Source: Escherichia phage EP_H11
Sequence record: OP688485
DNA length: 64,000 bases
Strand: one strand, 5' to 3'
Within the stretch, counting starts at the first letter, position 1; the number at the start of each line of letters is the position of its first letter. This document shows positions 41,609 through 45,002 of this stretch, in pieces. A program made the translations under genes and the position numbers. The notes beneath the pieces were generated by a model, which ran no database searches, was not told the origin of the DNA, and saw only the letters and a program-made list of their open reading frames with translations.

Positions 41609-42316
41609 ATGGTTGATAAGAATAAAGTATTCCAGATTCTACAAGCTGGTCGTGGTACTGTTAACCCACTCAGCGATGTAGGTGCTGTGGCTGGAGAGAA
41701 AACCCAGTCTGTAGTTAGCGGATTAAGCCAGCTACAGAATCCTTCGGCACTTAAGGCAGAAGCTCTTAATAAGGCTGGTATAGATCCGGCCTACATCAAC
41801 GCAGCCCAGCTAGCTATGGAGGGTAACTTATCCAGCATCTCTACGCTAGTTGCCTACGGCGATGAATCTGTACAGAACATGTACTCCAGAATTAACATAG
41901 CCAAGAACTATGCAGCAGCCATGGATAAATTCGGAGTGGCTACTGCATGTACCCCATTTAACTCTGTGATGGGCATCGTCGGTGGTATTGGGCAACGAGC
42001 ACTGAATACAGTCACGGAGGCCGTTGGGGGAGCAGCTGACAGTATTGAGGAGTTCCTGGGTCTGGACGATACCGAAGATCTTCTGGCTAAGGCTCAGGAA
42101 CTTAAGGATACTCTGGATGGTGCTTTTGAATCAGTAGCTACTTTCGTTAAGGACGTAACCGACTACATTAACGAAGAGGCATTACTCCTTAAAGAGTACA
42201 TGACTACCGCAATTAACTCAGCACTAACTGAAATACTTGGTGACTGGGTTGATGGGGAATGTACTTCAGCTATTATGGATACGGTCCTTAGTCCAGAGGT
42301 TAGACAGTACTTATGA
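41609..42316 (+). CDS. hypothetical protein (235 aa)
   Basis: Long ORF, Ala/Gly/Ser-rich; no motif recognised. Confidence 0.6.
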   Translation: MVDKNKVFQILQAGRGTVNPLSDVGAVAGEKTQSVVSGLSQLQNPSALKAEALNKAGIDPAYINAAQLAMEGNLSSISTLVAYGDESVQNMYSRINIAKNYAAAMDKFGVATACTPFNSVMGIVGGIGQRALNTVTEAVGGAADSIEEFLGLDDTEDLLAKAQELKDTLDGAFESVATFVKDVTDYINEEALLLKEYMTTAINSALTEILGDWVDGECTSAIMDTVLSPEVRQYL

Positions 42317-42849
42317 TAAAGAGAATAATGTGTGTAGCTAGCGGTCCTTCTCTAACCGAGGAGGATTATTTACTACTTGCTAGTAAGTCCGACTTGGTTA
42401 TTAGCGCTAACAACGCCATGTTCTCATCCAGACCTCCCAACATAGTTTATGGATTTGATCCTATCTGGTGGGAGCATAACTATAATAATGTTCCGAGCAC
42501 CTGCTCTAAGTATAGCCATCTTCCGGTAGAGAATCATCCAGATGTGAAACAGTTCTTCTACTTGAATAGTTGCTATAACTCAGGTGCTCAAGCTATCTTC
42601 TTAGCCAGCGTATTCGCTCCTAAAGAGATAGTACTTCTTGGCTATGACTGCGATATCTCTGAGGGCAGCCATTTCCACGGGGATCATATTGGTAAATTAA
42701 CTAATCCCGATCTGGAAACAGTTGCTAAATGGATGGAGGACTATTACTTGGTCAAGAAATACCTTCCAGATAGTATTGATGTAATCAATTGTACCAGAAG
42801 GACTAAAATAACATGCTTCGAGAGGCTAAGTATAGAAGACCTGCTGTAA
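42313..42849 (+). CDS. MptE/DUF115 (Maf-like) family protein, candidate nucleotide-sugar transferase
   Basis: CVASGPSL..VISANNA..GFDP and NSGAQAIFLASVFAPKEIVLLGYDCD fit the DUF115 pattern. Atypical codon usage. Confidence 0.5.
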   Translation: MIKRIMCVASGPSLTEEDYLLLASKSDLVISANNAMFSSRPPNIVYGFDPIWWEHNYNNVPSTCSKYSHLPVENHPDVKQFFYLNSCYNSGAQAIFLASVFAPKEIVLLGYDCDISEGSHFHGDHIGKLTNPDLETVAKWMEDYYLVKKYLPDSIDVINCTRRTKITCFERLSIEDLL

Positions 42850-43448
42850 TTGTAGCAGATGGACCATCGGCAAGAGGATTTACTCCTCCGCATGAGATAC
42901 CGATATTTGCGGTTAATGGTGCCATAGAGTGGCTACCCAGAGCTAATTACTTCTTTACTCTGGACCCCAGCCAAGCTAATCTATGTCGTATCCAAAACCC
43001 TAGGATGGGTACTCGTTATTATCTAGCTGTTGACGAAGCAGATATGCATCTGTATTCGGATTATGGAGCACACTTACTTAAGCGGGACGAACATCGTGGG
43101 GAGGAGCCTATCTACGGCACTCCCCTATGGTGGTTGTGGAGATGGAGAGCAGTTCCTGGGTTATCTGAGGATCCTGATGTAATCAGTTCCGGGAATAGCG
43201 CTTATGGGGCGATCGGATTAGCTTATCATATGGGCTACACTGATCTCTTGTTGGTTGGGGTAGATGGTAGTCCTGAACCAAGAATATCTGGTGGGGTACC
43301 AAATAATCTTAGCCATCTTCCTATTTTAATTAAGTCGGCTACAGAGAAGATAAATATTCAGTCCTTATCAGGGATTGGTGGGACTCGTAAAACTACTGTT
43401 GAGGAATGGCTGAATGAAGTTACTGTATATAGCGAATTGCCCGAGTAG
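42813..43448 (+). CDS. MptE/DUF115 (Maf-like) family protein, paralog of 42313-42849
   Basis: VIVADGPSARGF..FAVNGA..FTLDP and GNSAYGAIGLAYHMGYTDLLLVGVDGS. Confidence 0.55.
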   Translation: MLREAKYRRPAVIVADGPSARGFTPPHEIPIFAVNGAIEWLPRANYFFTLDPSQANLCRIQNPRMGTRYYLAVDEADMHLYSDYGAHLLKRDEHRGEEPIYGTPLWWLWRWRAVPGLSEDPDVISSGNSAYGAIGLAYHMGYTDLLLVGVDGSPEPRISGGVPNNLSHLPILIKSATEKINIQSLSGIGGTRKTTVEEWLNEVTVYSELPE

Positions 43449-44382
43449 TTCACATCAGGTAACCAGCTTCAGTACCATGTGGAAATATCATCTCCGAACG
43501 GCTCTGGAGAATAACGGAGTAGAGCTGGTAGTATATCCAGAGTATAATAAGATAACGAATCCATTCTCCTATGCAGAGCAAGTATTGGAGATAGCTAAGG
43601 AAACTAAGTGCGATCATATCTTATATGTGGGAGTACGTCCGTTTACCCAGATTCCTCTAGAGATAGGAGAATACCTTAAGAAGCACTTTAAGGGATTAGT
43701 TACTCATATCTATGATGGGTCGATGCTGGACTGTAATCAGGTAGACGTAACTTTCACTCTTCGGGATGATACCTATAAATACTTAGATAATCCCAGTCGT
43801 CTTAAGCGACATATTGAGAATAACTGGCAGGTAGGATGGGCGGCAGACGATAAGCTATTCTACCCAGAGAAGATGTCGGATGGGGTGCTTAGGGTATTTG
43901 TGGACCATCCTCTATTTGATCTGTCGGACTTCGATTACTCCCTAACCATGATGATGAACCTTAAGCATATTCCGGTTCCTCACGTATCTTACACTCTTAC
44001 CGATAATGGATTATGCGTTATTGACGAGGAGAATATAAGTGTTGAGGAGTATCGTCGGGGAGGAGTAAGCAGTCAGGAGTTCGCTGCATTAATCAGATGC
44101 TGCGATATCTTCATAGTTACTCATAAAGAATCGTTAGGTCTTACTGTCCTGGAAGCGGCTCGGTGCGGAGCTCTGATAGTAACTAAGGAGGGACTTATTC
44201 CTAAAGATCGTCTGGAATCTGTAGAGCATCACATAGTTGGTTCTAAGATAAACTGGGACGAAATACTCCCTAAACTTAACAGAACCAAGATTGCTGATAA
44301 GGTTAAAGATTGTACCTGGGATAACGTAGCTAAGAGCATGATCCAGGGATTTAAACATATGGAGAAGATTAAATGTCGTTAG
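43414..44382 (+). CDS. GT-B fold (GT1/GT4-like) glycosyltransferase
   Basis: N-terminal MKLLYIAN and C-terminal ESLGLTVLEAARCGALIVTKEG (E-x7-E-like nucleotide-sugar site). Confidence 0.55.
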   Translation: MKLLYIANCPSSSHQVTSFSTMWKYHLRTALENNGVELVVYPEYNKITNPFSYAEQVLEIAKETKCDHILYVGVRPFTQIPLEIGEYLKKHFKGLVTHIYDGSMLDCNQVDVTFTLRDDTYKYLDNPSRLKRHIENNWQVGWAADDKLFYPEKMSDGVLRVFVDHPLFDLSDFDYSLTMMMNLKHIPVPHVSYTLTDNGLCVIDEENISVEEYRRGGVSSQEFAALIRCCDIFIVTHKESLGLTVLEAARCGALIVTKEGLIPKDRLESVEHHIVGSKINWDEILPKLNRTKIADKVKDCTWDNVAKSMIQGFKHMEKIKCR

Positions 44383-45002
44383 TAGTTACGGTGTTCCGTA
44401 AGGGTAAGGACTTCACAGAAGATCACGTTAAATGGGTAGGTAGGCAACTACCAGAGGGCACGAGATATGCATGTATCTCTAAAGAGCCTATCGAAGGAGT
44501 TGAGTGGATACCTATGAAGCATGATTATCCTGGCTGGTGGAGTAAGATGGAGCTATTCACTATCCAGGAGCCATTCGTGTTCTTCGATTTAGATACAGCA
44601 ATTATCGACGATATAACATTCCTGCTGAACTGTGACGAATCAACTATTCTCCGAGACTGGTACCATACTGGGATGGTTAATAGTAGCGTGATGCGTGTTG
44701 AGCCTATCTTATCTGAGCGCATCTGGAATGCTTGGATAGTCAACCCAGATAAATTCATGGCTGATCACTCGATAGGAGGTGATCAGGAGTTTATCTGCCC
44801 ATTCTTTAATGGGGTACCTCGCATACAGGATCTCTATCCAGGTAAATTCTGTTCCTACAAGGTATCAGTAGTAGGTCCTGACCAAGAGCATTACTGTCAT
44901 AGGTCTACCGGAAACGGGTCGGTGCCTAATGGAGTTGCGGTAGTGTGCTTCCATGGCACTCCGAGACCATGGGATTTGAAGTATTCATGGATACCTAAAT
45001 AA
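44373..45002 (+). CDS. putative DxD-motif glycosyltransferase
   Basis: GWWSKMELF..FVFFDLDTAIIDDI resembles the nucleotide-diphospho-sugar transferase DxD region. Confidence 0.45.
   Translation: MSLVVTVFRKGKDFTEDHVKWVGRQLPEGTRYACISKEPIEGVEWIPMKHDYPGWWSKMELFTIQEPFVFFDLDTAIIDDITFLLNCDESTILRDWYHTGMVNSSVMRVEPILSERIWNAWIVNPDKFMADHSIGGDQEFICPFFNGVPRIQDLYPGKFCSYKVSVVGPDQEHYCHRSTGNGSVPNGVAVVCFHGTPRPWDLKYSWIPK

Follow-up and report, generated by a model that had tools for sequence, protein, structure and literature searches.

Do the four overlapping genes at positions 42313-45002 of Escherichia phage EP_H11 encode a glycosylation pathway and, if so, from which donors and onto which acceptor would it work? 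The stretch analyzed here, called the window, comprises 64,000 nucleotides (nt) of this phage (sequence record OP688485). A preliminary description, made from the sequence alone, had read these genes as a second glycosylation cluster composed of two paralogs of the MptE/DUF115 type and two glycosyltransferases (GTs). We name them A (42313-42849), B (42813-43448), C (43414-44382), and D (44373-45002), all on the + strand. C, A, B, and D are full-length homologs of the phage P1 proteins Dbn, PmgO, PmgP, and PmgQ, respectively, and the four genes very probably form a portable module of co-operating glycosyltransferases of the P1 type.

Organization of the locus and homology to phage P1 genes

A check of the open reading frames (ORFs) found all four genes at exactly these coordinates, encoding proteins of 178, 211, 322, and 209 amino acids (aa), respectively. 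The features of the locus are as follows.

41565..41584, + strand: terminator-like hairpin, AGGGAGAC-TTCG-GTCTCCCT followed by a T-run, G+C-rich (pattern scan, consensus match)
41609..42316, + strand: DUF7217 protein, 235 aa, isoelectric point (pI) 4.2 (Pfam PF23854, E 1e-78)
42313..42849, + strand: A, 178 aa, Maf/GT42-fold transferase, homolog of P1 PmgO (phrog_4603)
42813..43448, + strand: B, 211 aa, paralog of A and ortholog of P1 PmgP, 'morphogenetic protein' family (phrog_2111, E 2e-62)
43414..44382, + strand: C, 322 aa, GT4-like (GT-B) protein, homolog of P1 Dbn and P7 Glt (phrog_2518, E 2e-98)
44373..45002, + strand: D, 209 aa, GT8-type retaining GT-A protein, homolog of P1 PmgQ (phrog_1962, E 2e-55)

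The genes overlap or are coupled, as previously described, and the peptide motifs quoted at that time match exactly; adjacent genes overlap by 37 nt (A/B), 35 nt (B/C), and 10 nt (C/D). The DUF7217 gene, the first of the unit, shares a 4-nt ATGA overlap with A, to which it is translationally coupled. The hairpin is a putative terminator that would end the upstream unit and mark the 5' boundary of the operon, and the transcription unit likely consists of five genes, DUF7217-A-B-C-D, at 41609-45002. A scan of the operon region revealed neither repeats nor an enrichment of sigma-70 promoters.

The similarity to the P1 proteins extends over the full length and amounts to 31% identity between A and PmgO (E 1e-29), 47% between B and PmgP (E 6e-58), and 33% between D and PmgQ (E 2e-35), whereas C and Dbn share 48% identity over query positions 1-313 (E 6e-91). 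The P7 names for genes of this type are Glt, the counterpart of Dbn, and HdmD, and the corresponding PHROGs are 2518, 4603, 2111, and 1962. Since all four genes are homologous to P1 genes, the set is old and widespread, and it is mobile among unrelated phages of Gram-negative bacteria. In P1 the genes run pmgN-pmgO-pmgP-ppp-pmgQ, and dbn belongs to the ban operon, some 6 kb distant. P1 and JK004 both preserve the arrangement A-B-(x)-D, but in P1 dbn is separate and ppp lies between pmgP and pmgQ, whereas here the four genes overlap in one operon behind that of DUF7217. Two promoters belong to the P1 operon: one of the sigma-70 type under C1 control and a late one further upstream. CRISPR interference and deletion have shown that dbn, pmgO, pmgP, and pmgQ are non-essential and dispensable for plaques (PMC10695390). 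A literature search on pmgO/pmgP/pmgQ, dbn, and DUF115 in combination with phage retrieved no functional study, in agreement with the earlier statement that no characterized role is known for DUF115-type enzymes in phages, and the P1 label 'morphogenetic' is a placeholder.

The only close DNA relative among GenBank phages is Escherichia phage vB_EcoM_IME392 (MH719082), with 94% identity, the same gene order, and all genes labelled 'hypothetical'. Since it is the sole match at the DNA level, no donor lineage can be named at the nucleotide level. Its record comprises 116 kb with only 85 annotated features, and the annotated start of its C homolog (9917-10774) lies 37 codons late, giving 285 aa versus 322 aa. 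We judged that start to be too late based on the full-length alignment to P1 Dbn, which also upholds the long start of C. The DUF7217 family was detected by tblastn in 580 phage records, some of which are labelled structural or membrane protein; in Ackermannviridae and Felixounavirus the label is virion 'structural protein', and in Dickeya phage JA15 the gene lies between the capsid and tail-completion genes.

We also noted the 9-mer TTTATAGGG, which occurs twice in the window, at 41560-41568 and 45011-45019, in the two gaps flanking the operon. The first copy overlaps the terminator hairpin. We did not accept the 9-mer as a promoter: at least two copies were present in 7% of shuffles, and the flanks are otherwise unalignable, so that the pairing may be due to chance.

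A and B as probable minimal Maf/GT42-fold transferases

The only Pfam match of A and B is PF01973 (MptE-like/DUF115), with scores of 20.3 bits (E 5e-4) and 17.8 bits (E 3e-3), respectively, both below the Pfam gathering threshold of 34.6 bits. This domain is present in many homologs of both proteins, and the fold fits the solved members. The preliminary assignment of the two genes to DUF115 is thus borne out in that they belong to the MptE-like/DUF115 superfamily and have a Maf-like catalytic core; an alignment of the A and B families with hhalign (99.2%, E 1e-19, 173 columns) identifies them as clear paralogs.

Relatives of A to D in the Protein Data Bank (PDB) were found through family profiles; single-sequence searches of the PDB with A, B, C, and D returned nothing usable. 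The joint A+B profile matched Cst-II, a GT42 CMP-sialic-acid:lipooligosaccharide sialyltransferase, over about 146 positions (E 1.8e-4), with the motifs GPSL, (V/C)N, and NSG...LG...L.G.D aligned. The next matches were Cst-I (E 0.011), Maf (0.031), and another lipooligosaccharide sialyltransferase (0.038); with the A-only profile, Cst-II/GT42 was reached at E 0.23. The best structural match of A is the protein O-glycosyltransferase Maf (PDB 5mu5), and a fold comparison against BFVD revealed no more than a widespread occurrence of the fold among uncultured phages and giant viruses. A third relative is WaaZ (GT73), which is the transferase III of 3-deoxy-D-manno-octulosonate (Kdo). A WaaZ-like protein aligned end to end with the A family (hhalign 87%, E 4e-6, 189 columns) and with the core of B (60%), and WaaZ-like relative scores against the A family were 28 and 24 bits in hidden Markov model searches.

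Each of these systems also differs from A and B. Maf (5mu5) has a solved chain of 632 residues with flanking domains, whereas A and B correspond to the catalytic core only and lack both the multi-domain layout of about 600 aa and the flanking domains that bind the acceptor. Maf systems comprise flagellin, a flagellar glycosylation island, and the synthesis of pseudaminic (Pse), legionaminic (Leg), or neuraminic (Neu) acid; none of these was found here, and the window ORFs scanned contain neither flagellin nor CMP-Pse/Leg biosynthesis genes. The Campylobacter enzymes Cst-I and Cst-II have very low identity to A and B, their likeness being one of profiles, and they use CMP-sialic acid, whereas E. 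coli K-12 hosts make no CMP-N-acetylneuraminic acid. From the profile and motif matches we conclude that A and B are best placed in the sialyltransferase-like/Maf branch, as minimal proteins of a single domain, rather than among the pyrophosphokinases. A is probably a glycosyltransferase that depends on a CMP-ulosonic acid.

C and D as predicted glycosyltransferases of the GT4-like and GT8 types

The gene at 44373 had been noted for a DxD region. This motif is present in D as D72-L-D74, and profile, fold, and invariant motifs narrow the assignment to GT8. Across 57 sequences, D72, D74, H194, G195, and P197 are invariant, and D carries a C-terminal FHGTPRPW. The family profile of D matched the Skp1 alpha-galactosyltransferase (alpha-GalT; 6mw5, E 1e-7) and glycogenin (E 4e-6) in the PDB. 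The predicted structure has a mean local confidence (pLDDT) of 97.1, and a Foldseek search with this model retrieved glycogenin, LgtC, and GlyE at a probability of 1.0 and a TM-score of about 0.65. D shares with these GT8 enzymes and Skp1 alpha-GalT the fold, the DxD motif, and a C-terminal motif of the H-x-x-G-x-x-(K/R)-P-W type, but is short (209 aa) and below every Pfam model: none, including PF01501, was reached at E <= 1. We therefore assign D to the GT8 retaining GT-A glycosyltransferases, with catalysis predicted from profile and model. WaaO, WaaR, and WaaJ are also GT8 retaining transferases.

The earlier classification of C as a GT-B enzyme stands in part: an EX7E motif is present (E239...E247, both residues invariant in 58 sequences), but this segment is the only one that matches GT4-type enzymes. 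C reached PF00534 (Glycos_transf_1) with 24.5 bits (E 2.2e-5), below the gathering threshold of 26.4 bits, and 7 of 58 family members matched this model at E <= 1e-3. In the PDB, the C profile matched the GT-B enzyme 8xsg over the motif segment only (E 1.8e-4). The family is small, with 247 representatives in 1.84 billion, and its invariant residues in the 58 sequences are D164, H165, H237, E239, G242, E247, and G252. C is thus a putative GT4-like enzyme with an EX7E donor-binding motif, and its assignment is the least secure of the four.

Distribution of the module

The conserved core of the module is the B+D pair, with or without A, as found in P1 and JK004. In the lambdoid phages (L011, phiNP) this pair lies between the lysis cassette and the terminase. 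D-like genes are present in jumbo phages, including XacN1, and phage Chlobot has a lone D-like gene next to int, tail fibre, and lom. In D3-like siphophages, A-like genes occur alone within head-tail connector modules, namely, in D3 between the genes for major head and head-tail adaptor, and in a siphophage contig between those for connector and head closure. The named hosts of the phage carriers retrieved from the phage database in the A, C, and D searches are all Gram-negative, except for three Tetraselmis virus records.

Homologs were also found in bacterial chromosomes outside recognizable prophages. (i) A Brucella sp. chromosome (L013, 4791-9213) contains an A-like, B-like, and D-like triad near rnpA/yidC; its neighbors are large proteins without family hits, and there are no phage-family hits close by. 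(ii) The closest chromosomal homolog of D (39-45% identity) is found in the waa core locus of Klebsiella/Raoultella (L006, 6922-10811), where it adjoins the gene of the WaaL ligase. The WaaZ-like (Kdo transferase III) relative is encoded across waaL, two genes from the D homolog, and is itself distant from WaaZ, with 67 bits versus a cut-off of 200. A 320-aa gene beside the D homolog was considered as C-like and ruled out (hhalign 0.1%).

Some variant modules contain additional genes. In D3 and Eowyn the A-like gene has a different partner pair, one member of which is a methyltransferase, and a Methyltransf_23 S-adenosylmethionine (SAM) methyltransferase is present in the variant modules of L011 (5194-7801), D3 (orf13), and Eowyn (gp3) (L003, 6885-8280; L005, 6577-8071). 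The presence of this enzyme suggests that some versions of the module make a methylated glycan. The L011 variant also encodes a weakly GT-A-like protein of 190 aa. D3 orf12 and Eowyn gp4, which are not homologous to B, C, or D, looked GT9-like by eye; only one of them gave a Pfam match (E 0.069), leaving a weak lead.

Codon usage and acquisition of the module

The preliminary description had inferred horizontal acquisition from foreign-looking codons in A to D, in contrast to the 6.4-16 kb island. We measured ATA, AGA, AGG, CTA, TTA, and GGA as a fraction of all Ile, Arg, Leu, and Gly codons, thereby removing amino acid composition. This fraction is 0.38-0.43 in A to D, as compared with 0.19 +/- 0.12 in the 39 upstream genes and 0.29 +/- 0.12 in the 19 downstream genes (45-60 kb), with Mann-Whitney p values of 0.0014 and 0.018, respectively. 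A to D are the top-ranked run of four consecutive genes (rank 1/63), and the codon-bias z scores against synonymous resampling are 2.4 (A), 4.0 (B), 2.5 (C), and 0.9 (D). Several single genes are as extreme or more so, namely, 22571-23482 (0.65), 57401-58051 (0.49), and 58469-58831 (0.455), and the GC content of A to D (0.41-0.45) compares with a window mean of 0.45. The codon shift is thus real but moderate, and the genes at 6.4-16 kb are indeed ordinary (0.07-0.29), but codons alone are weak evidence of transfer.

The phyletic pattern provides stronger evidence of acquisition than codon usage. The nearest relatives of this phage as judged by DNA polymerase, Ralstonia phage RP13 and Acinetobacter phage Ab1-TPeters (about 30% identity), are absent from the hits of the A, C, and D searches, and this absence from the nearest relatives argues that the module was acquired. 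The best homologs of B and C (47-58%) are found in P1-like phages and enterobacterial prophages.

Proposed donors and acceptor

The larger ORFs of the window yielded no sugar-nucleotide synthesis genes, and the donors must therefore come from the host. A and B would transfer Kdo or a related ulosonic acid from host CMP-Kdo, which we favor because it is the only CMP-ulosonic acid made by every such Gram-negative host and, in E. coli K-12, the only one on offer to Maf/GT42-fold enzymes. We infer from the fold, the motifs, the host range, and the lack of a phage donor pathway that this donor is plausible, and, with no sign of a Pse/Leg/Neu supply, more so than the nonulosonic acids associated with Maf in the preliminary description. 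A Maf enzyme places Kdo on Ser/Thr in E. coli using CMP-Kdo (PMC11339370). C and D would add hexoses from host UDP-hexoses, and the four enzymes together would produce a short glycan of Kdo and hexose at the cytoplasmic face of the membrane. The acceptor would be the nascent core of the host lipopolysaccharide (LPS) or a related lipid-linked glycan. Such a modification would remodel a surface structure used as receptor by many coliphages, P1 included, and could exclude superinfecting phages or prevent the loss of progeny on cell debris. Mycobacteriophage virion glycosylation and Gtr/Oac conversion are likewise cases in which transferases encoded by a phage draw on host donors and change either the virion or the surface of the host. 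Gtr/Oac systems bring about lysogenic conversion of the O-antigen, and phage systems of these kinds use GT2-type or Gtr enzymes, the latter being periplasmic and dependent on undecaprenyl-phosphate-linked sugars; we know of no report of Maf/GT42-fold enzymes in them.

We hold this explanation as a whole, including its acceptor, only tentatively. A number of observations speak for LPS. (i) The D homolog and the WaaZ-like gene flank waaL in the waa core locus. (ii) The mix of WaaZ-like, GT4, and GT8 families is that of LPS-core loci, in which GT4 and GT8, the families of C and D, are the standard outer-core families. (iii) The lone D-like gene of Chlobot occupies an int-proximal conversion slot, and the A+B+D triad of Brucella lies in a chromosome without phage families nearby. 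(iv) The P1 operon has a C1-controlled promoter, and dbn, pmgO, pmgP, and pmgQ are dispensable. In addition, a conserved host molecule is favored as the target since the module hops between unrelated phages. Other observations weigh against an LPS acceptor or the use of CMP-Kdo. The best structural match of A, Maf, is a protein O-glycosyltransferase, a comparison that is one-sided since WaaZ has no solved structure; D3-like siphophages have A-like genes within their head-tail connector modules; and the operon opens here with a gene of a family annotated as virion structural. The link of A and B to WaaZ is at the profile level only, the single sequences of A and B leave the curated WaaZ models TIGR04437 and PF27901 (NCBIfam, Pfam) unmatched, and CMP-Kdo as the donor is inferred rather than observed. 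LPS made during the lytic cycle would replace only part of the surface LPS, and receptor masking would be slow. Furthermore, A to D are acidic (pI 5.3-6.1), unlike the typically basic, membrane-peripheral core transferases. As a proxy for membrane-peripheral LPS enzymes, pI was nevertheless discarded as uninformative; P1 PmgO and PmgP are basic, and the family medians are 8.7, 8.8, and 6.7.

The same enzymes and host donors could instead serve a virion protein, a possible but rather doubtful acceptor, ahead of which we place an LPS-type acceptor by a slight preference. A and B would then O-glycosylate Ser/Thr like Maf, with C and D extending the glycan, on a cytoplasmic target such as a capsid, tail, or decoration protein, here possibly the co-transcribed DUF7217 protein, and virion stability, adsorption, or immune recognition would be altered. 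Among the best solved relatives of D are glycogenin and Skp1 alpha-GalT, GT8 enzymes that act on proteins, and Maf enzymes accept varied acceptors as well as CMP-Kdo (PMC11339370). Genes related to A lie within head/connector gene blocks (D3, siphophage contig), the homologs of PAJU2 and Eowyn are labelled 'structural protein', and DUF7217, labelled structural in Ackermannviridae, is linked to A by translational coupling; a late promoter also belongs to the P1 operon. 'Virion glycosylation' is spoken of in several mycobacteriophage papers, and the authors of one genome announcement suggest that phage glycosyltransferases glycosylate the capsid. However, the 'structural protein' labels are not traceable to proteomic data, and no virion protein is common to P1, the lambdoid phages, D3, the jumbo phages, and the present phage. 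DUF7217 in particular was not found in the 12 kb of P1 that were searched, its carriers Felixounavirus and Ackermannviridae are not in the phage hit lists of A, C, and D, and no annotated glycosyltransferase surrounds it in JA15. A and B, with 178 and 211 aa, have no counterpart to the acceptor-binding domains found at the N and C termini of the 632-residue Maf, homologs of D are found in a chromosomal LPS locus and a conversion slot, and the P1 genes are dispensable for plaques (PMC10695390).

Two further alternatives derive from the hypermodified DNA of this phage and from the Pfam match of A and B. The preliminary description had listed DNA among the possible targets, and the cluster might, in the manner of T4 or SP-15, glycosylate the 5-hydroxymethyl-deoxyuridine (5-hmdU) base and so protect the DNA from restriction. 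The window does encode, at 6.4-16 kb, a 5-hmdU DNA kinase, a ThyA-like enzyme, and an HD phosphohydrolase along with accessory enzymes, the cluster lies in its replication/nucleotide-metabolism half, and the DNA polymerase is distantly similar to that of Bacillus phage SP-15, whose DNA contains a glycosylated hypermodified uracil. We nonetheless regard this target as highly improbable. The cluster is 26 kb away from the hypermodification genes, and A to D have no resemblance to known DNA glucosyltransferases in fold or profile searches. P1 has all four families, and lambdoid and D3-like phages have A, B, or D, and hydroxymethylated bases are not known from any of these phages; Ackermannviridae, which carry the 5-hmdU pathway, are in none of the A, C, and D phage hit lists. 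In addition, A, B, and D are encoded in the Brucella chromosome and D in the Klebsiella/Raoultella waa locus. It is similarly very unlikely that A and B are ATP-dependent pyrophosphokinases of the MptE/thiamine-pyrophosphokinase type that would activate a hydroxymethyl or hydroxyethyl compound (a pterin, a thiamine-like molecule, or 5-hmdU), although their sole Pfam match, PF01973, is named 'MptE-like' and the phage makes a hydroxymethylated base. With the joint A+B profile, CMP-sugar transferases score E 2e-4 to 0.04 and MptE no better than 0.59, A and B always accompany bona fide glycosyltransferases (D, C, or the GT-A-like protein in L011), and the phage already has a dedicated 5-hmdU kinase.

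In its boldest form, which we offer as a speculation that may well prove wrong, the module would be an unrecognized and widely mobile pathway that diverts host CMP-Kdo and UDP-hexoses during lytic growth into a Kdo glycan on virion proteins or the LPS core, with A and B representing a new, stripped-down class of ulosonic-acid transferases. On virion proteins, such a glycan would make this the first virus particle with a Kdo-type protein glycosylation, whereas on the LPS core it would constitute a receptor-masking device of the lytic cycle, a counterpart of lysogenic conversion. Should CMP-Kdo be their donor, A and B would rank as very small ulosonic-acid transferases that glyco-engineering might exploit. 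The analysis also provides a concrete biochemical reading for four classic genes of P1, named only by placeholders ever since its genome annotation; since P1 is genetically tractable and the genes are dispensable, the question of the acceptor is directly testable.

The 6.4-16 kb cluster and other genes of the window

The cluster at 42313-45002 had been called the second of two glycosylation clusters. Based on its gene content, however, the region 6420-15958 is a predicted thymidine DNA-hypermodification cluster, not a sugar pathway, and the picture of the genome is corrected to one DNA-hypermodification cluster and one glycosyltransferase operon. The following genes were identified in this region.

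6420-7160: SAM methyltransferase
8174-9556: full-length transporter of the betaine/carnitine/choline family (BCCT) (PF02028, E 2e-91)
9643-10254: PIG-L-family deacetylase
12422-13393: 5-hmdU DNA kinase (PF18723, E 4e-35)
13471-14205: thymidylate-kinase-like P-loop protein
14202-15275: ThyA-like enzyme (thymidylate-synthase homolog)
15359-15958: HD/YfbR-like phosphohydrolase

Three proteins of 300-360 aa (7262-8170, 10261-11295, and 11343-12422) have no Pfam or PHROG match, and the final base modification is not predictable from the gene content. A phage-borne membrane transporter inside a hypermodification cluster is unusual; the BCCT protein might import an amine or quaternary-ammonium compound that is attached to thymine.

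Outside both clusters, the strongest compositional outlier of the window is the ORF at 22571-23482 (GC 0.37, GC at third codon positions 0.34, 65% rare Ile/Arg/Leu/Gly codons, codon-bias z 8.4). Located directly after the DNA polymerase gene, it encodes 303 aa without a Pfam or PHROG match and looks like a recent insertion, judging by its composition. The phage belongs to an orphan lineage, with a PolA that is about 30% identical to those of Ralstonia phage RP13 and Acinetobacter phage Ab1-TPeters and has distant similarity to that of Bacillus phage SP-15. The genes at 26582-28096 and 29676-31244 match the beta-subunit families of phage multisubunit RNA polymerases phrog_3015, phrog_2987, and phrog_25354; such families are those of phiKZ- or AR9-type phages, yet the sole relative IME392 has a deposited genome of 116 kb. 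The segment 38110-41001 encodes an NAD-dependent DNA ligase and, after it, an acyl-carrier-protein-like product (40053-40307, PP-binding, E 1e-7) as well as a PinA-like Lon protease inhibitor (40582-41001). Downstream of the glycosyltransferase operon are genes for a NADAR domain protein (53010-53669, E 7e-27), an Rv2179c-like 3'-5' exoribonuclease (54374-55087), and a dCTP-deaminase-like protein (56781-57404).

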